DNA from: Nitrospirota bacterium
GTDB lineage: Bacteria > Nitrospirota > Nitrospiria > JACQBW01
DNA length: 64,000 bases
Assembly (NCBI GenBank): GCA_016194305.1
Contig: JACQBW010000008.1
Span: 85,684-149,683, forward strand
Reading direction: 5' to 3'
A program made the position numbers and the translations under genes. This document shows, piece after piece, positions 811 to 36,229 of the stretch. The first letter of the stretch is position 1. Every line of letters begins with the position of its first letter. The notes beneath the pieces were generated by a model, which searched no databases, was not told the origin of the DNA, and saw only the letters and a list, made by a program, of their open reading frames with translations.

Positions 811-985
811 TATCTGGGATCGTATTGCCTTATATTGTATTTTTTTAATTTAGGTTGTTCAAATAGTTCAGGGGGAAGGCCCAGGAACGAGGCAACTGGA
901 GTGTACTTAACACGTACATGAGGATTGCCGAGAGACGAGAACGCATCAGCTGGATAATTTCAACAAACTACTAAGGAATAAAATA

Positions 986-1717
986 ATGGATGCACTATAC
1001 CCCGTCCTATCAGGAGCCCTGACGCAAGAGAAGAATCTCGAGGTAATCACCAATAACCTTGCGAATCTGAATAGTAGCGGGTTTAAAAAAGACTTTCCAA
1101 TTCTTTCCGCCCTGGATCCTCTTGGATTTGATCAGCCGAATTTAAATGGCGGGAAAGATCCTCTTCCGACCTATGGATTTTTAGACGGAATCAGTACCGA
1201 TTTCTCGCCAGGCGTCATAAAACAGACAGGCGAACCGCTCGACGTGGCCATCGACGGAGAGAACTTTTTATCAGTTCAGACGCCTGCGGGGGTTCGTTAT
1301 ACCCGAAATGGGAGCCTTAGCCTTAATTCTGAAGGCCAGATCGTGACACAAAGTGGCTACCCGGTTTTAGGATCTTCCGGTCCGATTACTCTCCCCCCTG
1401 GGAGAGTGAATATCGATGACGAAGGGAGAGTCTCGGTGGAAGGGATAGAAATCGATTCCTTTCAATTGGTCCAGTTTGGCGATTTGAAAAGTCTGAAAAA
1501 GATGGAGGGCACCTTGTTTGAGGCCTTCGGCGTGACAGCGACCCCTGCGATAGAAAAGAGAGTGCAACAAGGGTTCCTGGAAGGTTCGAATGTCAATCCG
1601 GTAGAAGAGATGGTGGCGATGATTCGAATCATGAGACTCTACGAAGCCTCACAGAAGGTGATTCAAAGCACGGATGAAATGGCTTCAAAAGCATCAAACG
1701 ATCTGGGAAAAGTATAA
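986..1717 (+). CDS. flgF: Flagellar basal-body rod protein FlgF
   Basis: N-terminal rod-protein motif (ITNNLANLNSSGFKKD) and conserved C-terminal rod segment; sits directly upstream of flgG. Confidence 0.85.
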   Translation: MDALYPVLSGALTQEKNLEVITNNLANLNSSGFKKDFPILSALDPLGFDQPNLNGGKDPLPTYGFLDGISTDFSPGVIKQTGEPLDVAIDGENFLSVQTPAGVRYTRNGSLSLNSEGQIVTQSGYPVLGSSGPITLPPGRVNIDDEGRVSVEGIEIDSFQLVQFGDLKSLKKMEGTLFEAFGVTATPAIEKRVQQGFLEGSNVNPVEEMVAMIRIMRLYEASQKVIQSTDEMASKASNDLGKV

Positions 1718-1871
1718 ATAAAGGAGTTAAACAATTCTGGACGTTGAGAAAAGGCCATAGGCAAGACCGCAGAATCGAGGCGAGGGAAGCGTATGTGGTT
1801 ATACGTTGACGAGGCCGAGATTCGAGAACGATGCATAGGGTCTTTTATCAACGGACAACATAGGAGAAAAG

Positions 1872-2654
1872 ATGAATGCATTGAGTATTGCCAGCACCGG
1901 CATGTCCGCCCAACAGCTCGCTGTAGAAACGATCGCCAATAATTTGGCGAACATGTCAACAATCGGGTTTAAAAAGAGTGTTAATGAATTTCAAGATCTC
2001 ATGTACCAGACGGTCAGGGCGGCTGGCACTTCAACCGGCACAGGGACGCTTCCCGTTGGTTTGCAGATTGGAACCGGGGTGAAACCGGTATCCATTCATA
2101 AGATTTTTGCCCAGGGAGATTTCCAACATACCCAGAGTCCTCTGGATATTGCAATTCAGGGAGACGGATTCTTGCAGGTGACCCTGCCGGACGGAACAAC
2201 GGCCTATACCAGAGATGGAGCCCTCAAGACCGACTCAAACGGCAATCTGGTCACCGCGGATGGGTATCAGATTCTTCCCGCCATGACCGTTCCCAATGAT
2301 GCTCAGACTATTTCCATTTCGCCTCAGGGTGTTCTTTCTGTCGTTCGTGCAGGAAGTTCCACTCCGGTCCAGATCGGCACAATCGATCTGGCCCGATTTG
2401 CCAATCCTGCAGGATTGAATAGCCTCGGACAAAATTTGTTTAAACCGACGTTAGGCTCAGGTGATGCTCTGACCGGTGCTCCCGGTGCGACCGGATTTGG
2501 AACGCTTCTGCAAGGTTCACTCGAAAATTCCAACGTCAACATTGCGGAAGAGATGGTGAATATGATCGTGGCTCAGAGAGCTTACGAAGTGAATTCAAAA
2601 GCGATTCAGACGTCGGATGATATGTTAGGCGTAGTCAATAATCTGAAGAGATAA
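1872..2654 (+). CDS. flgG: Flagellar distal rod protein FlgG
   Basis: N-terminal ANNLANMSTIGFKKS and C-terminal AQRAYEVNSKAIQTSDDML, both typical of FlgG. Confidence 0.9.
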   Translation: MNALSIASTGMSAQQLAVETIANNLANMSTIGFKKSVNEFQDLMYQTVRAAGTSTGTGTLPVGLQIGTGVKPVSIHKIFAQGDFQHTQSPLDIAIQGDGFLQVTLPDGTTAYTRDGALKTDSNGNLVTADGYQILPAMTVPNDAQTISISPQGVLSVVRAGSSTPVQIGTIDLARFANPAGLNSLGQNLFKPTLGSGDALTGAPGATGFGTLLQGSLENSNVNIAEEMVNMIVAQRAYEVNSKAIQTSDDMLGVVNNLKR

Positions 2655-2714
2655 GAGCATTCTGTTAAGAGGTCGCATGGTTGTTTCATTAATCTGGAAA
2701 GGAAAAATGGAATA

Positions 2715-4222: not shown

Positions 4223-4246
4223 TTGTTTGTAATAGGAGAATGTTGC

Positions 4247-5500
4247 ATGAAGGCATGTATCATAGTACCCCCCTCTGAATTTTTAGATGATGATAAAGTA
4301 TTTCCGGCTTTGGGGCCCTGGTATATCAAGCGATATGTCGAAGAGAACTCCATTCACCAGGTCGATGTTTTGACAAATCCTCCGTTCGCCTATTTAGAAA
4401 GATATGATGTGGTTGGATTCAGCGTGACAACGCCTCAATATAATTATGTCGACAGGATTTTGAAGGATCTTCCAACAGGGATGACCACCGTATTGGGAGG
4501 TCCACATTGTCGTACTTATACGGTTGAACCGGGGACTTTCACACATGTCATTAGAGAAGATGGATGCAAACCTTTTCTGAATATCTTAAACGGGAATGAA
4601 CCTGGTAAAGAATCGGACGACAATGACCAGCTTCCCCACAGAGACATGACCTACCATGAATATAAATATGTTTTAGATGGCCGAAAATCGACTAATGTAA
4701 TTACCAGCAGAGGGTGTCCTCTATTGTGTTCTTTTTGCGAACATGCGAGGACGCCGGGTAGATTTAAAAGCAAAAAAGCGGTTGCGAAGGAAATTCAGGA
4801 ATGCAAGGATCTGGGGTTTGAAGGAGTGATGTTTTTTGATGACCTGTTCTGTTTGAATACCCAGCGGGTACGGGATATGTGCGAGGTCATCAAGCCACTC
4901 GATATCAAATTTAGATGTTTTGCACATGCTTTAAGTTTCAACAGGAAAATGGCAGAGCTCCTGGCAGGTGCGGGATGTGTTGAAATCGGTTTTGGCGCTG
5001 AGCATGCGTCGCAAAAAATATTGGATAACGTCAATAAAAAGACCAAAGCGATCCAGAACTATCAGTTGATCGAAAGAGCACATGAGTTTGGTCTCCGAGT
5101 CAAAGCATTCCTGATGATCGGACTCCCAGGAGAAGACCATGAGACCGTTAAAGAGTTGGAACAATTTGTCTTGAACTCCAATGTTGATGACTTCGACCTC
5201 TGTGTTTACTATCCTTTTGTCGGTACCGAGATTGCTGACTATCCTGAGAAGTTTGACATACAGATCAAAGATGATCAGAGTGGGGCCTATTATAAAGGAA
5301 AGCTGGGGTCCTCTTCGGTAATCGTTCGGACAGAAGCACTATCTTCTGAAGAGATCAAATATTGGCAAAAGAGGATCTATTCTCATAATAAGAGATGGAA
5401 AGGGGGAATGAAGTCCACGCTTGGAATTAAAATTGTGGATGAACCCTCTGCCGCAGATGTTTGCAGTTCCAGTAATGTGAATGGGTTCCCAGCAATTTAG
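4247..5500 (+). CDS. Radical SAM enzyme with an N-terminal B12-binding-like domain, inserted between flgH and flgI
   Basis: CPLLCSFCEH matches the CxxxCxxC radical-SAM cluster motif. The likely start is the ATG at 4247, preceded by an AGGAG ribosome-binding site; the ORF track begins at a TTG at 4223. The ORF directly abuts the flgH stop. Confidence 0.7.
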   Translation: MKACIIVPPSEFLDDDKVFPALGPWYIKRYVEENSIHQVDVLTNPPFAYLERYDVVGFSVTTPQYNYVDRILKDLPTGMTTVLGGPHCRTYTVEPGTFTHVIREDGCKPFLNILNGNEPGKESDDNDQLPHRDMTYHEYKYVLDGRKSTNVITSRGCPLLCSFCEHARTPGRFKSKKAVAKEIQECKDLGFEGVMFFDDLFCLNTQRVRDMCEVIKPLDIKFRCFAHALSFNRKMAELLAGAGCVEIGFGAEHASQKILDNVNKKTKAIQNYQLIERAHEFGLRVKAFLMIGLPGEDHETVKELEQFVLNSNVDDFDLCVYYPFVGTEIADYPEKFDIQIKDDQSGAYYKGKLGSSSVIVRTEALSSEEIKYWQKRIYSHNKRWKGGMKSTLGIKIVDEPSAADVCSSSNVNGFPAI

Positions 5501-6952: not shown

Positions 6953-6980
6953 TAAAGTTTTTTGTCAGATCGGCCGATAA
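6953..6980 (+). promoter_or_regulatory. Sigma-28 (FliA) promoter upstream of flgM
   Basis: TAAAgttt, then GCCGATAA after a 16-nt gap, about 75 nt upstream of flgM. This is a near-perfect class-III consensus. Confidence 0.7.
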
Positions 6981-7413: not shown

Positions 7414-7926
7414 ATGTCTCCTTCTTCGCTCGACGTTCTTCTCATCAAATTTTATTCCACCCTCGGTGAGATGACGAAAGGTTACCAGCAATTCATGTCC
7501 ATTTTGCAAAAAGAAAAAAGCCTGATTATCGAAGGCAACAGCGAGGAGCTGATTACCTGCCTCCTACAGAAAGAAGGGGTAATCTCTTACTTAAATGGAT
7601 TGGAATCGAAACGGGAAGCAGAGATTGAAGAGATCGGGCGTGCGCTGGGATTGACTTCTCGTCCGCTGACTTTTGTCATGCTGATCGATGCGGTGAAGGA
7701 ACCCTTCAAAAGCAAATTTATTTCTTGTAAGGCAGGCCTGGAAGCATTGACTGCAAGTATGATTGAAGTCAATCAGATCAACGGACTTCTGGTTGAACGG
7801 ACACTTCGAAAGATTACTGATCTGATCGGCTTAATAAATCAGATTTCGGCGGTTCCGATCACTTATTCCTCAAATGGCGTCGCCAATGCTTTTCCTGCGA
7901 AAGGGAGAAGTCTCGCGAGAACGTAG
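7414..7926 (+). CDS. flgN: Flagellar export chaperone FlgN-like
   Basis: 170-aa helical protein lying between flgM and flgK. Confidence 0.55.
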   Translation: MSPSSLDVLLIKFYSTLGEMTKGYQQFMSILQKEKSLIIEGNSEELITCLLQKEGVISYLNGLESKREAEIEEIGRALGLTSRPLTFVMLIDAVKEPFKSKFISCKAGLEALTASMIEVNQINGLLVERTLRKITDLIGLINQISAVPITYSSNGVANAFPAKGRSLART

Positions 7927-8013
7927 TTTAGAAAAGGGTAAAAACCTGTTAAATCGTGGAATGGTTAAGTTGTTGAATTAGAAAAAAGAGTGGGCACTTC
8001 GATTTAACATTTC

Positions 8014-8028
8014 AACTGTTTAACAGTT
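8014..8028 (+). promoter_or_regulatory. Perfect palindrome AACTGTT-t-AACAGTT followed by a TTCAACAA motif, upstream of flgK
   Basis: 15-bp odd palindrome 33-47 nt upstream of the flgK ATG. A related inverted repeat occurs at 19053-19075. Confidence 0.4.
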
Positions 8029-8060
8029 CAACAAAGCAACACAGGTATTGGAAAGGAACA

Positions 8061-10717: not shown

Positions 10718-10735
10718 TTGGCAAGGTATTTGCAT
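10718..10735 (+). promoter_or_regulatory. Sigma-54 promoter upstream of the glycosyltransferase genes
   Basis: cTTGGCAAggtatTTGCAT with exact -24/-12 spacing, about 70 nt upstream of the 10805 start. Confidence 0.65.
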
Positions 10736-10804: not shown

Positions 10805-13408
10805 ATGAAAATTAAATCCAGAAACACACTTTCTTGCACGTGCGGAAGTGGTAAGAAATTTAAAAAATGTTGCGGAGCAATCCAAAAGAATGTGACAGAA
10901 ACCGGGACTGACTTAGAGATATCTGAAAAATTCAAAAATGCAATCGTCTATCATCAAGCAGGAGAATTGGATAAAGCGGAAGCGTTTTACAGGGAAATAC
11001 TGGAGGCAGATCCGCGACAACCGGATGTCCTTTTTAATCTCGGAGGCATTTGTGAAGGAAAGGGCGAACTGGGTAAAGCAAAGTCCTTTTATGAAAAAGT
11101 CCTTGAGAATAGACCTGACTACTATACCGTATATAACAATTTGGGGGCTGTTTATTACAAGGAAGAAAGTTATTTAGAAGCGCGGAGTTATTACGAAAAG
11201 GCCCTGTCGTTTAAACCTGATTTTGCCGAAGCTTGGAACAATCTCGGTATGGTATTTAAATCAGAGGGAAAGTTCAAGGAGGCCGAAGAATTCATTAAGA
11301 AGGCGATCTTTCTCAAGCCTGACTATGCCGATGCGTATAACAATTTGGGTGCAACCTATTTAGGACACGGAGATAGGAGCAAGAAGGAAACAGCGATAGC
11401 CTGTTTAGAAAAGGCAATAAAGATAAATCCCCGTCACGCCGGAGCGTACAATAATATTGGAAATATTTTAAGATTTGATGAAAGGCTCGAAGAGGCAGAA
11501 TCTTATTATTTAAAGGCAATCACAATTGACCCTAAGTTTCCCGATGCCTACTCCAATTTGGGAAATATTTACGAGCTTCAGGGAAGGGCTGAGGAGGCGG
11601 TTGAGAAATATAGAAAGACACTTGAACTGGCACCGAAACATGTCATTGCTCAGAGCAATCTTCTTCTTGCTCTAAACTATTCAGAAACTAGCGTTCCCAG
11701 TGCAGTCTACTCTGAACACCTTCTTTTCGAAAAGAATTTCGGGGAACAATTTAAGTCGGAAACGAAGCCTTATCTGAACGATCTTTCTCCGGATCGGAAA
11801 TTAAAAATCGGTTATATTTCTCCCGATTTCAGGACTCATTCGGTGGCGTACTTCATCGAGCCGGTCCTGGCCAATCACGACAGTCAGAAATTTGAGATTA
11901 TCGGTTATTCCAACAGTCAGGCATGGGATCAAATGACCAGGCAACTTCATTCTTATGTTGACAAATGGCGCAATATTTCGGGCATTCCGGTCCATATCGT
12001 AGACGAAATGATCAGAATGGATCAGATTGATATCTTAATTGACTTGAGCGGACATACGGCAGGAAACCGACTGCTTGTTTTTGCCCGGAAACCCGCCCCC
12101 GTTCAGGTAACATGGCTTGGCTATCCCAATACCACTGGTTTAAGGACGATGGATTATCGAATTACCGATCGTTTTGCAGATCCAGTCGGCGTGGCGGAAC
12201 AATTTCATACAGAACAACTCATCAGGCTCCCTAAATCATTTTCATGTTATCGACCGCCAGACGAAGGGCTAGAAGTGGAAGATACTCCGGCCATAGAAAA
12301 TGGATTTATTACATTTGGTTCATTTAATAATTTTTCCAAAGTTACACTGAGAGTTATTCAGTTGTGGGCTAAGGTTTTAAGATCTGTTCCTGATTCTCGC
12401 CTGATTTTGAAAACCGGTGGATTAAATGAAAAAAGTCTAAGAGACAGGGTCTACGATCAATTTGCATCTATGGGAGTCTCAGCCAATAGACTTGAGTTAT
12501 TGGGAAGAGACGCCTCACGGGAGGAACATTTTAGACAATATCGCCGTCTGGATATCGGATTGGATCCTTTTCCCTATAACGGGACGACGACAATTTGCGA
12601 GTCACTTTGGATGGGAGTGCCGGTGGTGACTCTTGAAGGACAAACGCATGCCGGCCGTGTGGGGGTGAGTCTTATGAATACCCTGGAGCTGACCGAATTA
12701 ATCGCCCGATCGGAAAACGAATATGTGGATATTTGTGTGCGTCTTGCAAATGACCTGGTGCAATTAAGTCAGTTACGGGCGGGGATGCGCTCGAGGATGA
12801 AGGCTTCTCCTTTAATGAATGAGAAGGAGTTTACTCAATACCTGGAAGACGCATACAGAAATATCTGGAAAGATTATGTGCGAAGACAGGGCCTGATGTC
12901 TGAGCGTTCTGAAATGAAAAATGTGGCTGATCCTGAAGTCAATGTCAGGATAGACGAGGCTCAAAATCTCCTGAAAGAAGGACGTTTAGACCAGGCAGAA
13001 ATTCTTTATCGGGAAATCTTGACGAACCACTCAAAGAATCCAACCGTGCTCCATGACCTGGGAATTGTTGCGTTCCATAAAGGACAATTGGCCCGGGCCG
13101 CGGATTTCTTTATCAAAGCATTGGCATTTAAGCCCGATTATGCCACCGCTTATAATAATCTTGGTGCGGTCTGTGATGAAATGGGGCGCCAGGAAGATGC
13201 CAAGGCGTGTTATGAGATGTCGCTGGTCTTGGTGCCGAATTATGCCGAAGCCCACCACAATCTGGGAGTACTGTACAAGAAACAGGGAATCATCAATATG
13301 GCGATGGACTTTTTCCAGAAGGCTCTGGATTTAAATCCCGAATATCTTGAAGCACGCAAGAATATAGAAGAGTTAAAGAGGATGACATCGGAGCCCTCAT
13401 CCGTTTGA
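10805..13408 (+). CDS. TPR-repeat protein with an N-terminal SEC-C metal-binding motif and an O-GlcNAc-transferase-like (GT41-type) C-terminal domain; candidate flagellin O-glycosyltransferase
   Basis: CTCGSGKKFKKCCG matches the SEC-C motif. There are at least 8 TPR units, and the C-terminal half resembles a GT41 catalytic region (GYISPDFRTHSVAYF..., GSFNNFSKVT...). Confidence 0.7.
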   Translation: MKIKSRNTLSCTCGSGKKFKKCCGAIQKNVTETGTDLEISEKFKNAIVYHQAGELDKAEAFYREILEADPRQPDVLFNLGGICEGKGELGKAKSFYEKVLENRPDYYTVYNNLGAVYYKEESYLEARSYYEKALSFKPDFAEAWNNLGMVFKSEGKFKEAEEFIKKAIFLKPDYADAYNNLGATYLGHGDRSKKETAIACLEKAIKINPRHAGAYNNIGNILRFDERLEEAESYYLKAITIDPKFPDAYSNLGNIYELQGRAEEAVEKYRKTLELAPKHVIAQSNLLLALNYSETSVPSAVYSEHLLFEKNFGEQFKSETKPYLNDLSPDRKLKIGYISPDFRTHSVAYFIEPVLANHDSQKFEIIGYSNSQAWDQMTRQLHSYVDKWRNISGIPVHIVDEMIRMDQIDILIDLSGHTAGNRLLVFARKPAPVQVTWLGYPNTTGLRTMDYRITDRFADPVGVAEQFHTEQLIRLPKSFSCYRPPDEGLEVEDTPAIENGFITFGSFNNFSKVTLRVIQLWAKVLRSVPDSRLILKTGGLNEKSLRDRVYDQFASMGVSANRLELLGRDASREEHFRQYRRLDIGLDPFPYNGTTTICESLWMGVPVVTLEGQTHAGRVGVSLMNTLELTELIARSENEYVDICVRLANDLVQLSQLRAGMRSRMKASPLMNEKEFTQYLEDAYRNIWKDYVRRQGLMSERSEMKNVADPEVNVRIDEAQNLLKEGRLDQAEILYREILTNHSKNPTVLHDLGIVAFHKGQLARAADFFIKALAFKPDYATAYNNLGAVCDEMGRQEDAKACYEMSLVLVPNYAEAHHNLGVLYKKQGIINMAMDFFQKALDLNPEYLEARKNIEELKRMTSEPSSV

Positions 13409-13426
13409 AATAATAAGGAGTTTAGG

Positions 13427-16400
13427 ATGGAAAGATGGCAATTAAGGACCCCAGTCGCTTTTATGATATTCAATCGACCTGATACGACCCAATTCGTGTT
13501 CGAGGAGATTCGTAAATCAAAACCACCCAAGCTGTTAGTCATTGCTGACGGTCCACGTCCCGGGAAACCAGACGAAGCAGAGAAATGTCGTGCGGCAAGA
13601 GCAATTATTCAGCGCATCGACTGGAAATGCGAAGTATTAACAAACTACTCTGATATCAATTTAGGTTGCAAGAGACGCGTCTCAACCGGTTTGGATTGGG
13701 TTTTTGAATTGGTAGAGGAGGCGATAGTACTGGAAGATGATTGTCTCCCTGAACCCAGCTTCTTTCGATTTTGTGAAGATCTGCTCAAAAAATATCGTCA
13801 TGATGAACGGATTGCCCAAATCAGCGGGGATAATTTTCAATTTGGAGAGAACGGGACCGAATACAGTTATTATTTCTCGAGAATTAATCATTTGTGGGGA
13901 TGGGCCTCTTGGCGAAGAGCCTGGAAAAAGCATGATGTATCGATGTCGAAATGGCCTGAAGTAAAGAGCAAGACAGGTTTAATTGACTGGCTTGGAAATC
14001 GGGAACTGGCCAATTTCTGGGAAGGGGCATTTGATAGCGCTTTCCTGGGAAAGATCGATACCTGGGATTTTCAATGGGTTTTCTCTTCCTGGTTGCATAA
14101 CATGTTAACGATTCTCCCCAATCAGAATTTAATTTCAAATATCGGTTTCAGGGAGGACGCCACCCACACCAAAGGTCAGAGCCTGTTTGCGAACATGAAG
14201 ACAGCTCCAGTTCTTTTTCCTCTCAAGCACCCTCCGGAGATTATTCGAAATGTTGCAGCGGATTCTTTTACCGAAAGGATGATGTTTCTCCCGAAAGCAC
14301 CGGTTCAAATGGAGTCGAATCCAAAATCGGATTCTCCTGTGGTCTGTAAAGTCTGTTCATCTAGATCAAGATTCCTAAAAAATGCATCCATGTTAAAGGT
14401 TCACTTGGTAGATTATTTTAAATGTGAAAACTGCGGATTTATTCAGACAGAAGAGCCATTTTGGTTAAATGAGGCTTATTCCAGTGCAATTACGAGCAGT
14501 GATACGGGTCTGGTGAGAAGAAATATTGAGCTTTCGAAAATGTCGAAATTGATTTTATCTAATTGTTTTGAGAAAAACGCCCAATTTGTCGATTATGGCG
14601 GAGGATACGGTCTTTTTGTCCGTTTGATGAGGGACTATGGTTTTGATTTCTACTGGATTGACCAACATTGTCCAAATCTTTTTGCCAAGAACTTTGAAGC
14701 AGATTGCCAAAACGGGAAGCGGTACGAGGTATTGACGGCATTTGAAGTTTTTGAACATCTGGTTAATCCCATGGATGAGATAGAAAAAATGCTGAAACTT
14801 TCAAATACCATTTTCTTTAGCACAGAACTGATTCCCTCTCATCATCCGAAACCGGGAGAATGGTGGTATTTTGGGCTTGAGCATGGCCAGCATATCTCTT
14901 TCTATACTCTGAGAACTTTGGATGCGATTGCCAGAAAATTTAATCTGAACCTCTATTCTAATGGGACTTCGCTACACATCTTAACGGACAAAAATCTTAA
15001 AGGTCCCTTGGAGTTTTCCGAGGGGATCTGGAAATCATTGCAAAGTCATGATATTGAGTGGTATGGACCTCACCGGATGGACAAGATTGTATTGGGCGTA
15101 TCCGGAGGAAACGAAACTCTCCAAAGTGTTCAAGCCATAATTCATTCCGCACGAACCTTTCTTCAGAATGGACACCTCGATGAGGCAGAAAAAATCTACA
15201 GAGACATTCTGAATGTGCATTCTCAAAACAGCGAAGTTTTGCATGATCTTGGAATTATTGCATTTCAAAAAGGCAAACTTGTTTCGGCATCCGATTACTT
15301 TCTTAAGGCCTTAAATATAAAACCCGATTTTGCAATAGCCCATAATAATCTGGGGGTTGTCTTGAATGAAATGGGGAAGAAGGAAGAGGCTAAAATCTGT
15401 TATGAAGTGGCTATTTCTTTAAAACCGGATTACGCAGAAGCTTATTTTAACCGAGGCATGATTTCCAGAGATCAGGGCCGTCATGACGAAGCGATGATCT
15501 CATTTCAAAAGGCAGTCGGGTTTAAGTCGGACTATGTTGAAGCACTCAAAGAACTGGAAGAATTAAAAAAGAAAGTTCAAAGTCCGAGATTGCTAAAACC
15601 AGTGCCGGCGATAAGTCCGGGCATGGATCCGGGTTTGAAAAAAAGAATGGCTTTTGTGGATTTGGCCTTTCATCAAAGAACAAAAAGCACGCTGGAATTG
15701 ATTGAGGTTTTCCAACGCCATTTCCAGGTCGACATATACTGGGACAGCGGAAATCTTGATTTTCAGCAGATTGCCAGACAAAGCTATGATACGGTCGTTT
15801 TTTTTCAAAAGATCTATGGGATGAGGAAATTAGATTCGCTTAACGCTAAAAATATTATTTTTATCCCGATGTATGATGATGTGATGGGAATCACAGATGC
15901 ATACTGGAGGCAGTTTGGTCATGTTCAGTTCCTTAGTTTCTCAAGAACGCTTCATGAGAAACTTCTTCACCTGGGGTTAAGATCTCGGCATATTCAATAT
16001 CATGTTCCATCCCCAAAGCTTCCAAGTCCAGAGCCGTCCTGTAAGGGCCTCTCCGGGTTTTTCTGGCAAAGGACCAACTATATCCGGTGGAGTACGATCA
16101 AGATCCTGATTCAGAATGTTTCGATTGAAAAATTTCACCTCCACTCCGCGGTCGATCCCCCGAACCATGTTTTTGAAAAACCTTCAGATGAAGATATCAA
16201 AAAATACAGCATCACCATCAGTGATTGGTTTCCCGGAAAGGAGGAGTATTTGACTCTCGTTGCCTCCGCCAAACTTTTCTTTGCCCCAAGGCCCTTCGAG
16301 GGAATAGGGATGTCTTTCCTGGAGGCTATGGCCATGGGAAAATGTGTGATTGCCCCGGATCTACCCACGATGAATGAATACATTCAGGATGGCGAAAATG

Positions 16401-16618: not shown

Positions 16619-16646
16619 TAAAGTTTCTCAGGGGTTTCTCCGATAA
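16619..16646 (+). promoter_or_regulatory. Sigma-28 promoter upstream of flagellin
   Basis: TAAAgttt, then tCCGATAA after a 16-nt gap; the spacer length matches the flgM promoter. Confidence 0.65.
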
Positions 16647-16792
16647 GTATTGTTGAGGCAGAAGATCAAGATCGGAAATGAGGTGAAAGCTAGAAAAAGA
16701 GATAGATCGAATGCCTTGTTTTTGAACAAAAATACTTAATGAACCCAAATTGGCGAGAATTGCCAATTCAATCCTAGAAAAGGAGAAACACC

Positions 16793-19052: not shown

Positions 19053-19075
19053 AACTGTTTAATTGTTAAACAGTT
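19053..19075 (+). promoter_or_regulatory. Inverted repeat AACTGTTTAA-ttg-TTAAACAGTT upstream of the response-regulator/PilZ operon
   Basis: 10-bp perfect arms; shares the AACTGTT/AACAGTT half-sites with the flgK upstream palindrome. Confidence 0.4.
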
Positions 19076-19157
19076 AATTTGGGAAAAATAACAATGTTCC
19101 AACTCCACAATTCAACAAACTAACGATACAACATTCCAAAGTTAGGCCCTTAAAAAA

Positions 19158-20283: not shown

Positions 20284-20476
20284 AAAATACTGAAAATGAA
20301 GGCCCTGATCGCTTCCTTTTTGAGTGGCAGGATTTTGAGAAATCATTTGAATCGAAGGTTGTTCAAAAAGTGCCAGATGCAAGGCCGCAGGTGCAAGGCA
20401 TACGGAACGTACACGAGCAGTACGTGAGTAATGCCGCGCAACGAGAACGTAGCAGATGGACTTTTTCAACAATCTT

Positions 20477-21019: not shown

Positions 21020-21459
21020 CGACGGGTCCTTTTGGTCTGTCCAGCGATTTCATCCATGGTTTGCTGGTCCTTTTTCTCAATTCGTGTCAGATAAGTTTGG
21101 AGTCTGTTTTTTTCCAGTTTTTGGACCACTTTCTTCTCTTTGACCGCCAGGGCCAGTTTTTCGCGGAAAAGTTCATATTCTTCCAGTAGTTTTTGCACAG
21201 CCAGTTCCTGTTGCTCCACCTTATCTTTTTGCTGCTGAATAAACCGCTGATAGAGTTCCAACTCGAAAGGGAGAATTCCCTCACCTTTTTTTGCCAGCAA
21301 ATTCCGGTTCGTTTGATCCATCAAATCCCGCAGGACACTCAGTTTTTCTTCTTCAACGGCCAATTGGCGGTTTTTTTCAGCAAGGGCTGTTTCAGCCAAC
21401 TCTTCCTGAAACTTCAGGTGAAGAAGAATTCCATTCAGTTTGGATTGATATCTCGCCAT
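21016..21459 (-). CDS. fliJ: Flagellar export protein FliJ
   Basis: 147-aa coiled-coil protein downstream of fliI. Confidence 0.65.
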   Translation of the reverse strand: MARYQSKLNGILLHLKFQEELAETALAEKNRQLAVEEEKLSVLRDLMDQTNRNLLAKKGEGILPFELELYQRFIQQQKDKVEQQELAVQKLLEEYELFREKLALAVKEKKVVQKLEKNRLQTYLTRIEKKDQQTMDEIAGQTKRTRR

Positions 21460-21622
21460 ATCCTTCTCTAAATATGGTACATGTTGAGTTATTGAAATGT
21501 TGAATGGCTAATTTGGGAATCAATAGACTTTTCCCAATTCAACAAATCAGCAGTTCCACGATTCAACGATCGTTTCCTATCCCATCAGACGAGAACAACG
21601 CGAATGAGGCCTTTTCAACAGA

Positions 21623-22936
21623 CTATGGGAGGATTCTGGCAAGTGCATCAATGCTTTCTTTGATCGTGACCCTTTCATGGATATCCTGTCTAATATAAGC
21701 CTGAAGTTCTTCCCACTTTTCAATTGCCTGGTCAATTTTCAAGTTGCTCCCGGCCTTATAGGCCCCGATATTAATCAAATCTTCAGCCTTTTGATAAGTA
21801 GAGAGCAATTCGGAAAATCGTCTTGCCCGATCGATCTGTTTGGAATCGACAATATCAATCATGACCCTGCTGACACTGTTTAAAATATCGATGGCAGGAT
21901 AGAGTGCCCTTGCGGCGATTTCCCGGGAGAGTATGACATGTCCATCCAGAATGGCCCGTACCGCATCCGGAATCGGGTCGTTGATATCATCTCCTTCAGT
22001 CAAGACGGTAAAAAGTCCGGTCATTGTTCCTCCGTTTGTTCCAGTTCCAGAACGTTCCAGAAAGCCGGGGAGAAGAGAAAAAACGGAGGGAGTGTATCCT
22101 TTGGTTGCCGGCGGTTCGCCAATTGAGAGTCCGATTTCTCGCTGGGCATGGGCAAGCCGGGTGAGTGAATCCATCATAAATAAGACCTGCCGGTTGCGAT
22201 CTCTGAAGTATTCTGCGATCGACATGGCAAGAAATGCGGCTCTTTTCCTAACCAGCGGAGGCTGATCCGACGTCGCGACGACGACCACCGACCGTTTAAG
22301 TCCCTCTTCGTTTAGATCTTTCTCGATGAACTCTTTTACTTCTCTTCCACGTTCACCGATCAGGGCGATCACATTGACGTCGGCGGAAGTATACCTGGCA
22401 ATCATGCCAAGCAGGATGCTCTTACCAACGCCGCTCCCTGCAAAAATACCGATTCGCTGCCCGCGTCCGGCGGTCAAAAGGCCATTCAGAGCACGTACAC
22501 CCAGATCAAGTGGCGCCGTGATCCGATTTCTTTGAAGCGGTCCCGGAGGGACGTTGTATAAAGGATGAACTTCATGGACCTGGAGAGGTCCTTTCCCATC
22601 GATCGGTTGTCCCAGGCCGTTTAAGACCCGACCTAAAATTCTTTCTCCCACAGCCACCTTGGCCTGAACGGATTTATTGACAATGGCGCTCCCCGGTCCG
22701 ATCCCTTCAAGATCACCCAGCGGCATAAGAAGGACCTTATCGTCTCGGAAACCGACCACTTCGGCGAGAATTCTCCTGTTCCCTAATACCGAGATGACTT
22801 CGCATATTTCTCCAATGGCGGAAACCGGAGCGCATCCTTCCAAGACTATACCGATCGCCTGGGTGATCCGGCCATGAATGGGGCGTGGATCAATCTGATC
22901 AACCAATCCGAGAGCATCCATGATGAAACGGCTCAT
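21623..22936 (-). CDS. fliI: Flagellum-specific ATPase FliI
   Basis: Walker A GSGVGKS; F1/T3SS ATPase family blocks. Confidence 0.95.
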   Translation of the reverse strand: MSRFIMDALGLVDQIDPRPIHGRITQAIGIVLEGCAPVSAIGEICEVISVLGNRRILAEVVGFRDDKVLLMPLGDLEGIGPGSAIVNKSVQAKVAVGERILGRVLNGLGQPIDGKGPLQVHEVHPLYNVPPGPLQRNRITAPLDLGVRALNGLLTAGRGQRIGIFAGSGVGKSILLGMIARYTSADVNVIALIGERGREVKEFIEKDLNEEGLKRSVVVVATSDQPPLVRKRAAFLAMSIAEYFRDRNRQVLFMMDSLTRLAHAQREIGLSIGEPPATKGYTPSVFSLLPGFLERSGTGTNGGTMTGLFTVLTEGDDINDPIPDAVRAILDGHVILSREIAARALYPAIDILNSVSRVMIDIVDSKQIDRARRFSELLSTYQKAEDLINIGAYKAGSNLKIDQAIEKWEELQAYIRQDIHERVTIKESIDALARILP

Positions 22937-27559: not shown

Positions 27560-27577
27560 ATGCAAATAGCACGCCAG
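27560..27577 (-). promoter_or_regulatory. Sigma-54 promoter upstream of flgB (flgBC-fliEFGHIJ operon)
   Basis: Minus strand reads cTGGCGTgctatTTGCAt with exact GG-N10-GC spacing, about 40 nt upstream of flgB. Confidence 0.75.
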
Positions 27578-27601: not shown

Positions 27602-29062
27602 TCACACTTCACCCTTCACCAGGTTTTCTCGATTGTCCTGGGAAGATTCTGCCTCCTCCAGAGGGCAACTTTTACCTACCCCTGGATCATTCGGTTGAAT
27701 AAATCGTCCCGTTTCACGATAATCTCTTAACTTGTTTCGCACCGTTCTGATGCTAATCCCCAGTATTTTTGCGGTTTGGGTTCTATTTCCCCCTGATTTT
27801 TCAAGGGTTTTCAAAATCAATTCTCTTTCCGCCTCCCAGACGGTTTGAGGCATGACATGCGATTCAACTTTTTTAGAAGGATCCGATTGATCTTCCTCAA
27901 ACATCAAATGCTCCGGGAAAATAATGCCGTTTTCAGCAAGAAGAAACGCACGCTCCATGACATTTTCAAATTCTCTGACGTTTCCCTGCCATTTTTTTGA
28001 CATCAGGTGATTCAGAGCTTCCGGAGAAAGGGACATGGAAGGGCTCTCTTTTTTGCAGAAAAGTTTTTGTTGAAAGTATTCAAAGAGAATAGGGATATCG
28101 TTCAGCCGGTTCCGGAGTGGGGGCAACCTAAGCGGAAAGACATTGAGACGGTAATAAAGGTCTTCTCGAAACCGTCCTGATTTCACCTCTTCCCAGATCG
28201 GGCGATTCGTTGTGGCAATGACCCGGATATCTAATGGAATCGGCTCTTTCCCTCCCAGGAGTTCCACTTCGCGTTCTTGTAGAATTCGGAGAAGTTTCGC
28301 CTGGAGGTGAAGCGGCATTTCACTCACTTCGTCGAGCAGAATCGTACCGGTATGGGCCAGTTCAAATTTTCCGGGTTTTTTGGAGACGGCGCCTGTGAAA
28401 GCCCCCTTTTCATACCCGAAGAGTTCGCTCTCCAGGAGTGTTTCAGGGACCGCGGCGCAGTTGATCGCGATGAAAGGACGGTGTGCTCTGGGGCTGAATT
28501 CATGAATATGGCGAGCCAGGAGTTCTTTTCCGGTGCCGCTCTCTCCCTCGATCAAAATCGTTGCCTGGCTTGCCGCGACGACTTCAGCCAGTTTCAGGAT
28601 TTTGAGCATGGCCGTATCCTGGCTGATCATCCGTTTTTTTCCTTTGGGAAGGCTCTTGATTCGGGAGATCGGATGCACCGCGTCTCCTTCCTGGAATGCT
28701 CTGCGAATCGCCGATTCCAGTGTCTCCTGCGTGAAAGGTTTAACCAGAAAATCAAAAATGCCCGACTTCATCGCATCAACCGCCTTGTCGATTGTCCCAT
28801 AAGCAGACATCATAATCACCGGGATCTTGATTTGAGATTTCTGGATCTCCTGAAAGACTTCCAGACCATTCATCTGAGGCAGTTTAAAATCGGTCAGGAT
28901 CGCCCCGATCGGTCTATCTTTGAAAAGTTGAATCCCTTCCTCTCCCCGTGAAGCGGTGAAGACGGAGTATCCCATCTGCTGGATAGATGCGGCCAGTGCG
29001 GACCGCATTTCGGGTTCATCGTCGATGACCAGAATTGATCGAGACTTCGTCTCCGTACTCAT
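27602..29062 (-). CDS. Sigma-54-dependent response regulator (NtrC family; FlrC/FleR-like)
   Basis: Receiver domain (VIDDE...[11 protein letters not shown]), AAA+ sigma-54 activator core ([28 protein letters not shown]) and a C-terminal Fis-type helix-turn-helix. Confidence 0.9.
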
Positions 29063-32136: not shown

Positions 32137-32484
32137 GATTTTAGCAGGAAGTGTGTTGTTCGATTCAGAAGCCGATGCATTAACGGCAGCGGGAGCCGAT
32201 TCGACCGGGGGAAGCGTGCTGGCCAGAGCGATAGAGAAGATAAAAGCAGGAACGAATAAAATAGCGACACCTCGAACAAGAAAATGGATAAGGAGATTTC
32301 ACAAACGATCTCAATCGGGGTATAAGCAATTAGTATGCCAGCGACTGTTTATGCGGCTTTAAGGGGAAAAACGGGGCGAAAGGCAGCTATTTTCGCAAAA
32401 AGAGGGGATTATTCTCTAAAATTTTTTTTTAATCAAGATCGACAGTCAAATGTTTGACGATCCCATTTTAGACTCTTGAAGAAG

Positions 32485-33924
32485 TTAAGGCGTGATCTCT
32501 TCCGTCTGTTTCGAATGTTTGTCGAGCCGTTTCAAACGTTCAACCAGGGTGGTCCGATTCAGCTGAAGGAGTTGTGCGGCCCTGTTTTTCACCCCTTTTG
32601 ATTTGACAAGGGCCTGATTCAGCAGATGGACTTCAAACTCGGTGACCACCTTGGTGAAATTAATCCCTTCATCCGGAAACTGAAAAAGTGAAGAGCCGGA
32701 TGCAGGCTCAATTCTTTTGTATTTATCGGGAATATCTTCCGGTGAAATGGCACCTTCGTGCCGTAAGGTAATCATTCTTTCCATCAGATTTTCCAGTTCG
32801 CGGATATTGCCGGGCCAGCTGTAAGCCATCAGAATCTTGAGCGCCTCAGGCGTCAAGCCTTGAATGGTTCTCCCTTTTTTCGAGTTGAATTTGGAGAGAA
32901 AGTGATCGATTAAAAGAGGAATATCTTCTTTATGTTCTCGCAGGGCGGGGACATAGATCGGAATGACGTTTAACCGGTAGAAAAGATCTTTACGGAATTT
33001 TTTTTCAACCACCGCTTCTTCAAGATCCTGATTGGTTGCGGCAATAATCCGGACATCGACGTGGATCGAACGGTTCCCTCCTACCCGTTCAAACTCCCGT
33101 TCTTGCAATACCCGGAGGAGCTTTACCTGCAAGGGAAGCGGGAGTTCGCTAATCTCATCGAGAAAAAGCGTTCCGCCATGGGCAAGCTCAAACCGGCCGA
33201 GTCTCGAAGAGACCGCGCCGGTAAAGGCCCCCTTTTCATGTCCAAAAAGTTCGCTTTCCAGAAGCGCTTCCGGAATCGCGCCGCAATTGATCGGAATCAG
33301 CGGCTTGTCCTTCCGGGGGGAGTTAAAATGAATGGTCTTGGCGATGACCTCCTTCCCTGTACCGCTCTCTCCCTGAAGGAGGACGGTGCTGTCGCTGTCC
33401 GATACCTTTTCAATCATTTCAAATACTTTTTGCATCGGGGGAGAGTTTCCGATGATATTTTCAAATCGGTATTTTTCCTGGACGCTCTTCTGGAGAATCA
33501 GGTTTTCATGTTTGAGGCGATAATATTCCAGCGCCTTCTTGACGAGCGCCAGAACGAGATCAATTTGGAAGGGCTTGGGGAGATAATCGTAAGCTCCCGC
33601 TTTTAACGCATCCACCGCTGATTCAATCGTTCCAAAAGCCGTCATCATGATGACCACCGCTTCAGAATCGATCTTTCGAATCTCCTTTAACAGGTCAATT
33701 CCGGTCATTCCGGGGAGATGGTGGTCGATCAGGTATAGATGGAAGGGGGTCCGTTTCGCCATTTTTAGCGCTTCTTCGCCTTCGGCTAGCGAGACGGTTT
33801 GAAATCCGGAAGTATTGAGAAGCATCTCGAGCATCTTGCGAACCGATGCGTCATCTTCGACAATCATGATTTGAGAAGTCGGCATGGGCGTCTCCTTCCA
33901 AGAGGTAAAACGGTTATTAGTCAA
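32485..33924 (-). CDS. Second sigma-54-dependent response regulator (NtrC family; FleQ/FlrA-position)
   Basis: Receiver domain with conserved Asp, AAA+ sigma-54 core ([14 protein letters not shown]) and a Fis helix-turn-helix. Confidence 0.9.
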   Translation of the reverse strand: MTNNRFTSWKETPMPTSQIMIVEDDASVRKMLEMLLNTSGFQTVSLAEGEEALKMAKRTPFHLYLIDHHLPGMTGIDLLKEIRKIDSEAVVIMMTAFGTIESAVDALKAGAYDYLPKPFQIDLVLALVKKALEYYRLKHENLILQKSVQEKYRFENIIGNSPPMQKVFEMIEKVSDSDSTVLLQGESGTGKEVIAKTIHFNSPRKDKPLIPINCGAIPEALLESELFGHEKGAFTGAVSSRLGRFELAHGGTLFLDEISELPLPLQVKLLRVLQEREFERVGGNRSIHVDVRIIAATNQDLEEAVVEKKFRKDLFYRLNVIPIYVPALREHKEDIPLLIDHFLSKFNSKKGRTIQGLTPEALKILMAYSWPGNIRELENLMERMITLRHEGAISPEDIPDKYKRIEPASGSSLFQFPDEGINFTKVVTEFEVHLLNQALVKSKGVKNRAAQLLQLNRTTLVERLKRLDKHSKQTEEITP

Positions 33925-34172
33925 GAATTTGACAAAATAATTCTTTATCTTTCAATAACAAGCCGGAATAATAGACGAAGTGTCAATTCATTGCAGAATA
34001 GTTTATAAATAACACCTTTTCCGGGATTAGTCAAATTAAAGCGTCAATATCATGGCGTTCTTTTGCCTGATTTCGGGCCAAATTTCTTCGCTTGTTCAAC
34101 GAAACCGATTCTACTACAATCGGGAATAAGAGATCTGGTCGGCCCGTACCACTCACAGGAAGTTTGACATCC

Positions 34173-34961
34173 ATGAAAAAATATTTGACTCTTTTTAGAA
34201 TCAACTGGCAGAACTCGCTTCAGTACAGGGCCTCGACGGTGATTTATATCGTCGGATACGGCCTCTATATCTCGGTCATTCTTTATCTCTGGATGTCCGT
34301 ATACCAGGCGGGGAACAAAATGGGGGACTACACCCTGACCGATCTTTTAACCTATTATCTCCTGCAGTTGATTGTGAATATCCTGATCCTTTCTTATATC
34401 AGCTGGGAACTGATCGACCAGATCCGGGAAGGTTTCTTTTCAAATTTCCTGATCAAACCGCTGAATCTTCTCGTCTATTGGTTTACTGTCAATCTCTCCG
34501 GAAAACTCCTGGAGACGATCTATCTCAGCATGATTGGCGCGGTGCTCTATTTTTTCATGAGGGATTATTTCTGGCTTCCGCATCATTTCTCAACCTTTAT
34601 ATATTTTGGGGGTTCTTTATTTCTGGCCATGACGCTCGCCTTTCTGATGGATTTTTGCATCGCGCTGATCGCTTTCTGGTTGATTCAGGTGAGGGTGTTC
34701 AAGTTCATGCTCCTCTACCTGGTCTTCTTCTTTTCCGGAGCGATTCTTCCGCTCGACCTTTTCCCGCAATGGCTCCAGAAAGGGGTTCACCTCCTTCCCT
34801 TTCAGTATCTCGCCTATGTGCCGATCCGGATTTTTCTGGAGAAACAAGAGAACCTCTCCTCGGTCTTTACGATTGAATTGTTCTGGCTCCTCTTCTTTTT
34901 TGCGTTGGCGAGCTGGATGGTCTCACGCGGGGTGAAGAGATATGAAGCGGTGGGGGGCTGA
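34173..34961 (+). CDS. ABC-2 family transporter permease
   Basis: Six predicted TM helices. The start is probably MKKYL at 34173; the ORF track begins at 34092. Confidence 0.6.
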   Translation: MKKYLTLFRINWQNSLQYRASTVIYIVGYGLYISVILYLWMSVYQAGNKMGDYTLTDLLTYYLLQLIVNILILSYISWELIDQIREGFFSNFLIKPLNLLVYWFTVNLSGKLLETIYLSMIGAVLYFFMRDYFWLPHHFSTFIYFGGSLFLAMTLAFLMDFCIALIAFWLIQVRVFKFMLLYLVFFFSGAILPLDLFPQWLQKGVHLLPFQYLAYVPIRIFLEKQENLSSVFTIELFWLLFFFALASWMVSRGVKRYEAVGG

Positions 34962-34963
34962 CA

Positions 34964-35764
34964 ATGATTGAAGCGATTCGACGCCACTTGAAACTTTACA
35001 TCGCCTTTCTTGGCCACAATTTGAAAAATGAAATGATGTATCGTGCAAACTTTATCATTCTTTCCGCGATGGATATCTTTTTCATGGGGGTTAATGTCGT
35101 TTTTTTTACGATTATCTTTAACAATGTCCAGACCGTTGCCGGGTGGAGTTACTATCAGATGCTGATCCTGATCGGAAGTGTGGGAATCGTACGCGAAATG
35201 GCCTACCTGACATTCCGACAGGGGTTTTTAAATATCGGCGACTATATCCGAACCGGAGAATTCGACCTCCTATTGGTAAAACCGCTCTCCCCCCAGCTGC
35301 ATCTCGGATTCCGCCATATTTCCATGACCGAGAGCCTGGGTGAAGGGATCATGGGGATCATCCTGGCTGCGATCGGCTATTATCATCTTCCTCCGGGAAG
35401 TGTCATGGCGGTTCCGCTTTATATTATTTTTCTTTTTGTCTCGCTGATCATCTATTATTCCTTTTGTCTGATCGTCAACAGTGCCGTTTTCTGGATTATT
35501 AAATCACAGGAGTTAAATACGATTGTTTACTATTTTATGGAGACCGCGCGCTATCCGAGAGACATTTACCGGGGAATCGGAAAGGCGCTGTTTACTTTTG
35601 TCATTCCGATTTCGCTGATTGCGACGACGCCGGCCTCGATTCTGGCAGGGCGCGTCAGTTATTCCTTACTTTTTTTGTCGCTTTCCGTCGCCGGAGGATT
35701 GTTGTTGATCGGATCTTTAATCTGGCAGGTGAGTATTCGGCATTACTCGTCAGCAAGCAGTTAG
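34964..35764 (+). CDS. ABC-2 family transporter permease (second subunit)
   Basis: Polytopic membrane protein directly following the first permease. Confidence 0.6.
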   Translation: MIEAIRRHLKLYIAFLGHNLKNEMMYRANFIILSAMDIFFMGVNVVFFTIIFNNVQTVAGWSYYQMLILIGSVGIVREMAYLTFRQGFLNIGDYIRTGEFDLLLVKPLSPQLHLGFRHISMTESLGEGIMGIILAAIGYYHLPPGSVMAVPLYIIFLFVSLIIYYSFCLIVNSAVFWIIKSQELNTIVYYFMETARYPRDIYRGIGKALFTFVIPISLIATTPASILAGRVSYSLLFLSLSVAGGLLLIGSLIWQVSIRHYSSASS

Positions 35765-36229
35765 TGAAAAGTTGATGAAAATGCTTCCGTTGTTGAAATT
35801 GGACCGAATGTGGCCTTGCTCCCGGTCGCTTCATTCGCTCTCCGCGTCTGCGGAAATAGGCGGGGGTATCCATGCCCCCTCCCCACTTGTCCTTACACGT
35901 CAAAGGCCAGTGGGGTTTCCCCCTGCCCATTTTCTCGTCGTGTTCGTTCGCTCAATTCGCGAATGTTCGCTCGCCCGCATCCGGTCCATTTTCAGCGAGA
36001 GTTTTTTTTACGGTTTTTTACTTGAAATAACCTGTCGTGTTATATCCTTAACGGAGACTCGGCGAAATTTGAAAATGCTTCATCCAATTGTTTAATCGAG
36101 ATGAGCATGAATTTCGGCGCCGTCGGAGGGAAGAATGTAGCTCAACCGGTCATAAATATTGTTTCGCTAGTAGTTATTTCATTTTTTCCCAATTTAACAA
36201 CTTAACAATTCAACAGGTTTCTTAATACT

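Follow-up and report, generated by a model that had tools for sequence, protein, structure and literature searches.

Why does a single short word recur in front of flagellar start codons? The question is raised by a stretch of 64,000 nucleotides from a Nitrospirota bacterium (class Nitrospiria, metagenome-assembled; GenBank assembly GCA_016194305.1, contig JACQBW010000008.1, positions 85,684 to 149,683; hereafter the window). A preliminary description had noted the 8-mer TTCAACAA upstream of several genes of a flagellar cluster and had suggested that it could be bound by a post-transcriptional regulator, such as FlbT/FlaF or a CsrA-like factor, or else by a DNA-binding regulator. It is well supported that the pattern is produced by hairpin-forming intergenic repeats that carry the word at their ends. 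Two types of such repeats, here called A and B, were recognised, and this answer is carried by their anatomy, by the constraint on their base pairing, by their presence and absence among relatives and by the occurrence of the A-type in two phyla. We further consider it rather probable that TTCAACAA, far from being an independent operator, forms the 3' side of the basal helix in two related repeat families, which act through a co-transcribed hairpin.

The word and the repeats that carry it

All copy counts refer to the window, the single 64-kb sample of this genome. It contains nine exact copies of TTCAACAA on both strands:

642, minus strand: within a GGDEF gene
959, plus strand: leader of flgF
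7970, minus strand: flgN-flgK gap
8027, plus strand: flgN-flgK gap
19111, plus strand: leader of the CheY-like/PilZ operon
20465, plus strand: convergent gap between the PilZ gene and an MgtE_N-like gene
21538, plus strand: fliI-fliJ gap
28067, minus strand: within a sigma-54 activator gene
35790, minus strand: gap between ABC-2 permease and ABC ATPase genes

At least six copies, almost all of them intergenic, had been reported; seven of the nine are intergenic, and the intragenic ones at 642 and 28067 look like chance occurrences. The claim that the recurrence is non-random also held. In the intergenic DNA (~6,270 nt), the seven copies stand against 0.49 expected under a first-order Markov model of that same DNA, and none of 2,000 simulations reached seven. 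The intergenic 7-mer TTCAACA occurs 12 times versus 1.3 expected. The notion that the 8-mer merely mirrors A/C/T-rich, G-poor leaders can draw on whole-window shuffles, in which 3.8 copies are expected and 2 of 100 shuffles reach nine, and on the 11-mer, which is not enriched in the window when one mismatch is allowed. However, the intergenic excess, together with the embedding of the sites in 60–135-nt stretches that can be aligned with one another, effectively refutes it.

The sites cited upstream of genes all exist, some as variants, and the distance from motif to start codon varies between 13 and 39 nt:

959–970, plus strand: motif at flgF
8025–8035, plus strand: motif at flgK
19108–19122, plus strand: motif at the cheY-like operon
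21498–21505, minus strand: variant TTCAACAT at fliJ, with an exact copy on the plus strand at 21538
36206–36216: variant AATTCAACAGG at the ABC ATPase gene
16764–16774: variant CAATTCAATCC at the flagellin gene, with 2 mismatches
7969–7979, minus strand: inverted copy of the motif

Two copies had been assigned to the opposite strand, which is correct for 7969–7979; the one placed at about 20461–20470 lies on the plus strand (20465–20472). The shared 12-mers were recovered as described (TTCAACAAACTA at 959 and 19111, CAATTCAACAAA at 19108 and 21535), and the flgF motif does lie within the 5' untranslated region (UTR), 3' of a canonical sigma-54 promoter (794–808).

An upstream inverted copy of the 8-mer, reading TTGTTGAA or GTTGTTCAA, is nearly always present. 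At three sites the exact partner TGTTGAA lies 40–63 nt 5' of TTCAACA (7971/8027, 19048/19111 and 21498/21538), and at two sites a near-exact partner, GGTTGTTCAAA, lies ~105 nt upstream (853/958 and 20357/20464). Each element has palindromic ends and takes up most of its gap, so one arm always falls within 13–39 nt of a start codon, which is the pattern that was first seen.

The A-type element is a long imperfect hairpin of ~125–135 nt. Three copies were found in the window, listed here with their matches to a covariance model built in rounds R1 and then R2, together with a tentative remnant:

846–979, plus strand: copy 1, flgF 5' UTR, 3' of the sigma-54 promoter and 5' of the ribosome-binding site (115–124 bits)
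1732–1867, plus strand: copy 2, flgF-flgG intercistronic gap (111–125 bits)
20350–20485, plus strand: copy 3, convergent gap between the PilZ gene and the MgtE_N-like gene (126–132 bits)
21588–21625, plus strand: possible 3'-half remnant (GACGAGAAC...CCTTTTCAACAGACTA), abutting the fliI stop codon and holding the variant TTCAACAG; seen by eye and in a three-way alignment

The basal helix of copy 1 is formed by GGTTGTTCAAA (853–863) and TTTCAACAA (958–966), and its 3' arm is the flgF motif of the preliminary description. Copy 3 has the same arms (GGTTGTTCAAA at 20357 and TTTCAACAA at 20464). The basal helix of copy 2 is altered: CGTTGAGAAAAGGCC (1742–1756) pairs with GGGTCTTTTATCAACG (1838–1853), the word is swapped (CGTTGAGAAAAGG / CTTTTATCAACG) and TTCAACAA is absent. 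Because this helix differs, it is the pairing that is kept and not the 8-mer. With its filters off, the model found no further A-type copies in the window; it did not match the remnant significantly, and it matched the B-type sites only at E ~1–9.

Copy 3 lies between the PilZ gene, which ends at 20283, and the minus-strand MgtE_N-like gene, whose stop codon occupies 20477–20479. It is the sole strong structure at a convergent junction (−43.7 kcal/mol, z = −4.8), and its layout of A run, hairpin and T run is like that of a two-way terminator. The frame CAAAAAG...CTTTTTC surrounds the upper helix in copy 3 and in the comparison loci L013, L109 and L112, and is degraded in the intra-operon copy 1 and in L085/L087. 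The A-type stem is far longer than that of typical terminators, and a consensus terminator scan made no call on copy 3. No plausible open reading frame (ORF) was found downstream of this copy, only antisense ORFs that overlap a real gene.

B-type elements are inverted arrays of TTYAACAN octamers, 60–100 nt long, in which about three reverse octamers and a spacer are followed by four tandem forward octamers with a strict 8-nt period:

7952–8048, plus strand: flgN-flgK gap; exact inverted pair 7971/8027 and alignment with the other copies
19036–19136, minus strand: leader of the CheY-like/PilZ operon, running opposite to the gene; pair TGTTGAA (19048) / TTCAACA (19111)
21478–21560, minus strand: fliI-fliJ gap, sense to fliJ; pair TGTTGAA (21498) / TTCAACA (21538)
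35789–36216, no strand assigned: segment in the gap of 465 nt that separates the ABC-2 permease gene from the ABC ATPase gene, B-type at its ends; inverted repeats GTTGTTGAAATTGG (35789–35802) and CCAATTTAACAAC (36189–36201)

The flgN-flgK, cheY-leader and fliI-fliJ stretches align with the flgF-flgG gaps of L085 and L086 at 69% identity. In the flgN-flgK gap, three reverse octamers, including TTGTTGAA (7970–7977), face the tandem octamers TTTAACAT TTCAACTG TTTAACAG TTCAACAA (8003–8034); a perfect small palindrome, AACTGTT-T-AACAGTT, is found inside this element at 8014–8028. The cheY-leader element contains the palindrome AACTGTTTAA-TTG-TTAAACAGTT (19053–19075) and folds on its minus strand with −21.9 kcal/mol (z = −2.9); a sigma-70-like promoter at 19005–19032, a consensus match only, would place it in the 5' UTR. 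The fliI-fliJ element (z = −2.1 and −3.3) contains an inner helix, TTGGGAA/TTCCCAA; read on the fliJ strand, its octamers ATTCAACA TTTCAATA ACTCAACA are followed by the ribosome-binding site. The two types are probably related, given that the ends of the B-type are similar to the basal helix of the A-type.

In the ABC gap, the left end matches the reverse complement of the right end at 13 of 14 positions. The right end, which can be aligned to the 3' block seen in the remaining B-type copies, is made up of the octamers ATTTAACA ACTTAACA ATTCAACA (36192–36215), the ABC site of the preliminary description. This GC-rich, inverted-repeat-bounded gap contains an ORF (35772–36095, plus strand, 107 aa, TTG start) with no Pfam match, and the segment may be inserted DNA.

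Base pairing and distribution of the A-type element

The three window copies, the L085 flgF leader and the L087/L088 flgF-flgG gap align with a mean column identity of 75%. Across 17 copies, the unpaired blocks GCAAGGC (5' side) and GA.AACG.AGCAG..GG (3' side) are conserved in at least 80%; the apical stem GYGTAC/GTACRY is conserved as well, and tandem G.A mismatches are among the features. The arms are only partly symmetric, in that GCAAGGC and AACG.AGCAG are not mutual complements and the internal loops are asymmetric and conserved. A model-fitted alignment of 11 copies has 89% of its cells paired and double changes at 34 of 40 pairs, with a covariation score of 0.54 versus 0.18 for shuffled and ~0.09 for slid partners. 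An independent MAFFT alignment of five copies gave compensatory changes at 14 of 40 pairs.

The covariance model recovered the window copies at 110–132 bits and also matched L085 and L087/L088. A weak copy lies in the Nitrospirota locus L003, in the flgF-flgG gap as in the window. Further copies were found in flagellar loci that are Desulfobacterota or unassigned: L013 (three copies), L016, L017, L021, L028, L030, L044, L109 (two copies), L112 and L116. All comparison loci had been selected around flgF or fliI, so the link of the A-type to flagellar loci is partly a sampling effect. In L109, the two copies (4699–4833, minus strand, and 5068–5203, plus strand) are divergent and stand on either side of the sigma-54 promoter (TGGCACTGAGGTTGC) that precedes a flgB-like operon: the first is ~135 nt 5' of the promoter and the second in the leader, giving the order promoter, element, flgB, as at flgF in the window. 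In L030, a locus from a Proteobacteria metagenome-assembled genome, a small hairpin with the arms CCCTGTTGAAT...ATTCAACAGGG (7679–7720) is nested in an A-type copy (7623–7809), so the same arm sequence occurs as a separate insert in a distant genome. A pattern scan of viral contigs gave 42 matches, none of which was confirmed by the model.

Known RNA families did not account for the elements. At gathering thresholds, Rfam 15 recognised only a tRNA gene in the window (41895–41978, plus strand), and permissive scans (E up to 10) of 780–1900 and 18900–21700 gave no match on the elements. The signal recognition particle RNA, 6S RNA and other known RNAs were rejected accordingly, with no Rfam match even at E = 10.

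The structure shows a marked strand bias. Alignment-free folding favoured the modelled strand in 14 of 17 copies; its energy differed from that of the complement by −7.5 kcal/mol on average (p = 0.0003). Relative to the flanking genes, ten A-type copies are sense and nine antisense, the Nitrospirota copies being sense and most Desulfobacterota copies antisense. About half are antisense to both neighbouring genes, and the 3' end often abuts a stop codon. The A-type does not keep a constant position and sense orientation 5' of a defined set of genes, and one window copy has no downstream gene. Upstream of the antisense copies, neither a sigma-54 nor a sigma-70 pattern recurs that would give them a promoter of their own. 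Since these copies show the strand bias and have no shared promoter, either they are independently transcribed or the selected single-stranded form is DNA. Comparison of element orientation with GC skew was uninformative, as skew is positive on the gene strand at all loci.

Presence among relatives is patchy. The flgF leader contains a full A-type in the window and in L085; in L081, L083 and L086, with FlgF identities of 80–84%, it is ~55 nt long with a decayed helix stub (AGGTTTTAAA...TTTTTTCAACAACCT). Depending on lineage, the flgF-flgG gap contains an A-type (window, L087/L088, L003), a B-type (L085, L086), a stub hairpin (L083, L084, L089) or nothing (L081). The flgN-flgK gap measures 134 nt in the window versus 31–34 nt, with no motif, in L081 and L084, and the fliI-fliJ gap 163 nt versus 20–60 nt without the element in relatives; L090 has unrelated sequence there. 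In the 18-kb flagellar locus of an 81%-identical relative, the single motif copy lies in a decayed hairpin before flgF. In the intergenic DNA of 25 Nitrospirota loci, the 7-mer hardly occurs outside these hairpins in the closest relatives. Because most close relatives have short spacers that lack the elements, the motif is not a conserved feature of flagellar leaders. The comparison loci include no close orthologues of the cheY-like/PilZ and ABC genes, so the conservation evidence does not extend to these two sites. Upstream of flgF in Desulfobacterota, L013 has a full copy and L016 an internally deleted one, and L012 and L014 have none. Target-site duplications were found neither at the ends of the window copies nor in the filled-versus-empty comparison of L013 with L012/L014.

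The window copies are 58–66% identical to one another and no nearer each other than to copies in other genomes. Copy 2 is nearest to its counterpart in the flgF-flgG gap of L087/L088 (69% identity), and copies in this gap appear to be orthologous even between lineages in which FlgF identity is no more than 53–61%. These identities, with copy 2 nearest to its positional counterpart in L087, fit a long retention of paralogous copies. Many near-identical copies, as recent amplification would leave, were not found within the 64 kb. The A-type elements appear to be old, with no recent burst.

Similar elements have been described before. In Geobacter metallireducens, Aklujkar et al. (2009; PMC2700814) listed 24 'predicted short RNA elements' (Gmet_R1001–1024), with the central palindrome GRCGTAGCGCTGCTACGCC, and a family Gmet_R4001–4006, likewise with no known function. 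Like the A-type, they are intergenic and 110–135 nt long and have a central palindrome (GRCGTAGC-GCT-GCTACGCC in Geobacter, GGCGTAGC-AAC-GCTACG in L028, GYGTAC...GTACRY in the window). The reverse complement of the published orientation aligns strand-specifically with the A-type (z = 11 for L028 versus R1020 and 7.7 for L013 versus R4002, by pairwise alignment with shuffles), the other strand giving ~0. The folding asymmetry between strands recurs in 17 of 19 Geobacter copies, and TTTCAACAGCC forms the end of one copy. The Geobacter elements are located both between cistrons and at convergent junctions, some of them adjoining flhB and fliK. Their neighbours are diverse and often belong to operons for multi-subunit complexes (nuo, nifD, a transketolase C-terminal gene, ETF alpha/beta, cysT, fliK, flhB). 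The density differs: ~24 copies are spread over 4 Mb and many kinds of genes in Geobacter, whereas three copies lie within 20 kb of flagellar cluster here. An nhmmer search of the published Geobacter sequences with the A-type profile gave no match. Judged by pairwise alignment and shared architecture, the A-type is kin to these multicopy elements.

The flagellar cluster and its promoters

The flagellar cluster occupies 1–34 kb of the window, and transporters and unrelated metabolism genes fill the remainder. The closest genome representatives by FlgF belong to Nitrospirota / Candidatus Manganitrophaceae, with an identity of at most 56%. The cluster runs flgFGAH, a radical-SAM gene, flgI, a flgJ-like gene, flgM, flgN, flgK and flgL, followed by two large TPR/glycosyltransferase genes, flagellin, FlbT, FlaF and the CheY-like/PilZ operon. 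On the minus strand lie fliJ, fliI, fliH, fliG, fliF, fliE, flgC, flgB and two sigma-54 activators with kinases. The following promoters were recognised:

794–808, plus strand: sigma-54 promoter of the flgF operon, TGGCACATCAATTGC, an exact consensus match
10719–10733: sigma-54 promoter before the TPR gene, canonical
27562–27576, minus strand: sigma-54 promoter before flgB, canonical
32326–32340, minus strand: sigma-54 promoter before the kinase operon, canonical
6953–6980: sigma-28 promoter before flgM, canonical
16619–16646: sigma-28 promoter before flagellin, canonical

The sigma-54 promoter before flgF is kept in all Nitrospirota relatives. About 100 nt 5' of it, at 675–690, lies a palindrome, TTTTGCC-N(4-8)-GGCAAAA, which recurs at the matching position in all these relatives (L001–L011, L079, L081–L089) and also in Desulfobacterota loci (GGCAAAAAGG...). 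It is likely a site for an activator (enhancer-binding protein), though a putative one.

Several features of the cluster are recorded alongside. The radical-SAM gene (4223–5500, plus strand), which has a B12-binding domain and lies between flgH and flgI in the rod/ring operon, is also present in L081 and L170 and absent from L084 and L086. The FlbT and FlaF genes (18183–18948, plus strand) lie 3' of the flagellin gene. This pair is best known from Alphaproteobacteria, and the Desulfobacterota loci L013 and L028 encode csrA-fliW in its place. Between flgL and flagellin, two very large genes (10805–16549, plus strand; 867 and 1,040 aa) combine TPR repeats with GT41-type glycosyltransferase, methyltransferase and GT1 domains behind the sigma-54 promoter-like site at 10719–10733; their products may modify flagellin. 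A direct repeat of 264 nt with 71% identity (28204–28467 and 33030–33293) corresponds to the AAA+ domains of two paralogous sigma-54 activator genes and is no mobile repeat.

Function of the elements

Going by sequence, the elements most likely act as co-transcribed hairpins with an effect on mRNA stability, on processing or on termination. Presumably transcribed together with the flagellar operons, the hairpin could act in one or more of three ways. As a barrier or a site of processing, it could determine how stable adjacent cistrons are relative to one another; where A- and T-tracts flank a copy at the end of an operon (copy 3, L013, L109), it could serve as a terminator; and it may also shape access to the adjacent ribosome-binding site. 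Several points weigh against this reading, beginning with the mechanism, which we infer. The flagellar half of the window, with 3,383 of the 6,270 intergenic nucleotides, holds all seven intergenic copies of TTCAACAA (~0.013 under uniform placement), which leaves room for a flagella-linked role. The B-type folds are weak and have several pairing registers (consensus −8 kcal/mol; flgK copy z ~ −0.3), and these octamer arrays could instead be protein-binding sites. As for the A-type, a plain stability hairpin explains neither the loops conserved across two phyla nor the strand preference in antisense copies, nor does it explain the 32 G.U pairs against one A.C mismatch on the modelled strand (19:0 in copies sense to their neighbours, 13:1 in antisense copies). 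The A-type may have a more specific RNA or single-stranded-DNA function. We regard it as possible, but on balance doubtful, that the A-type and the Geobacter elements form a widespread, uncatalogued, strand-specific structured class in Nitrospirota and Desulfobacterota, either a regulatory RNA or a substrate for single-stranded-DNA mobilisation. As a regulatory RNA, the A-type could balance the output of adjacent cistrons, such as flgF versus flgG or nifH versus nifD, with antisense copies perhaps transcribed independently; in either case TTCAACAA would be a mere local spelling of the basal helix.

The repeats also bear on the earlier proposal of a linear binding site. Post-transcriptional control by FlbT/FlaF (in Caulobacter) and by CsrA-FliW acts via flagellin mRNA or its 5' UTR, and CsrA sites require GGA. 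The octamers might be cis-regulatory RNA sites for FlbT/FlaF, for Hfq (as A/C-rich, ARN-like tracts) or for an S1 translational enhancer, and so coordinate flagellar translation. They form G-poor tracts 13–39 nt 5' of five start codons, their strict 8-nt period would fit a protein that binds RNA as an oligomer, the window encodes FlbT and FlaF, all intergenic copies lie in its flagellar part, and the cheY-like and ABC genes have no obvious Shine-Dalgarno sequence. Yet the word is an arm of inverted repeats in larger elements, its orientation relative to the downstream gene varies among sites, orthologous leaders of relatives lack it, and the flgF-flgG copy retains the pairing and loses the word. 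The part of the element present in the RNA is not the same at the cheY-like and ABC genes as at flgK and fliJ, one site precedes a non-flagellar ABC ATPase gene, and one A-type copy precedes no gene. The sigma-28-driven flagellin leader (16647–16792), of the kind that FlbT/FlaF and CsrA-FliW are known to target, carries only the degenerate CAATTCAATCC, and the 8-mer has no GGA core. We consider such RNA sites unlikely. Recognition of the arrays as DNA, by an IHF/HU-like protein or a flagellar transcription factor binding sites paired on opposite strands, would accommodate the inverted 3 + 4 arrays with their variable spacing, the indifference to orientation and the weak B-type RNA folds. There is a parallel in Geobacter, where paired tandem octanucleotides on opposite strands (class 1 GTTGCTYN; family g TWGTTGAY) were conjectured to be IHF/HU sites (PMC2700814). 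They share with the B-type the tandem arrangement on each strand, the inverted pairing and the variable distance, and TWGTTGAY, compared by consensus word only, is close to TTGTTGAA/T of the B-type. However, an 8-bp period would place successive sites on different faces of the helix, and the spacing between arrays ranges from ~25 to ~400 nt. The likely flgF activator site is a different palindrome (675–690), no candidate protein was found in the sequences analysed, and the compensatory changes and G.U bias of the A-type indicate a single-stranded form rather than duplex recognition. This makes the DNA-site explanation very improbable, and none of the binders proposed earlier gains positive support from the sequences.

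If the elements were selfish, they would be miniature transposable DNA, or DNA of the REPIN kind, moved as single-stranded hairpins by a transposase encoded elsewhere, and the motif would be their terminal inverted repeat. ERIC, Correia and RUP-type miniature inverted-repeat transposable elements are intergenic imperfect palindromes of ~100–160 bp (ERIC ~127 bp) which are often co-transcribed, in either orientation, and can alter the stability of flanking mRNA (PMC3184786). The A-type is like them in size, terminal inverted repeats, intergenic location and a long stem-loop at the RNA level. In our elements, inverted repeats surround a short non-coding core (GGTTGTTCAAA / TTTCAACAA; TGTTGAA / TTCAACA; GTTGTTGAAATTGG / CCAATTTAACAAC), and insertion is polymorphic among related genomes (flgF leader, flgF-flgG gap, upstream of flgF). 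Confinement to intergenic DNA in both orientations, deletion derivatives, cores that vary from 40 to ~400 nt between the same ends and the TGTTGAAT...ATTCAACA mini-hairpin nested in L030 point the same way. REPIN and REP-RAYT systems (PMC3116915, PMC3337134) resemble the A-type as extragenic, vertically persistent hairpins of ~100 nt with inverted arms, and their recognition as single-stranded DNA would explain a strand-specific structure without a promoter. The A-type arms, however, are not two 20–40-nt REPs tagged GTAG or CGTC. Set against mobility are the missing target-site duplications, the old, diverged copies, the apparently orthologous flgF-flgG copy, the loop sequences and compensatory changes conserved across two phyla, and the lack of a transposase domain in the proteins scanned from the 64-kb window. 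Elements that are mainly selfish are therefore quite improbable, and a co-transcribed hairpin remains the reading that we prefer.

Other candidates were set aside. The arms match integron attC words in the opposite order on either strand (GTTGAAY ... RTTCAAC, against the consensus RYYYAAC ... GTTRRRY), and the window encodes no integrase. A promoter element does not fit, since canonical sigma-54 and sigma-28 promoters lie elsewhere and the motif is downstream of them. The resemblance to an IHF site or a CtrA box is loose and the spacing wrong, and a CsrA decoy RNA was rejected, as GGA motifs are unconserved and located in stems.

A word that recurs before flagellar genes resembles the operator of a regulon, and this tempting mistake is corrected here: because the word is the end of repeats that most close relatives lack, a regulon inferred from it would be wrong. 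The A-type combines unusually clean covariation with an occurrence in two phyla, has no Rfam family and was mentioned only in passing in the 2009 Geobacter paper. An action on RNA, if there is one, could account for the way in which flagellar rod, nitrogenase, Nuo and ETF operons tune the ratios of adjacent products. Geobacter metallireducens is cultivable and has ~30 copies, so the question is directly testable there.

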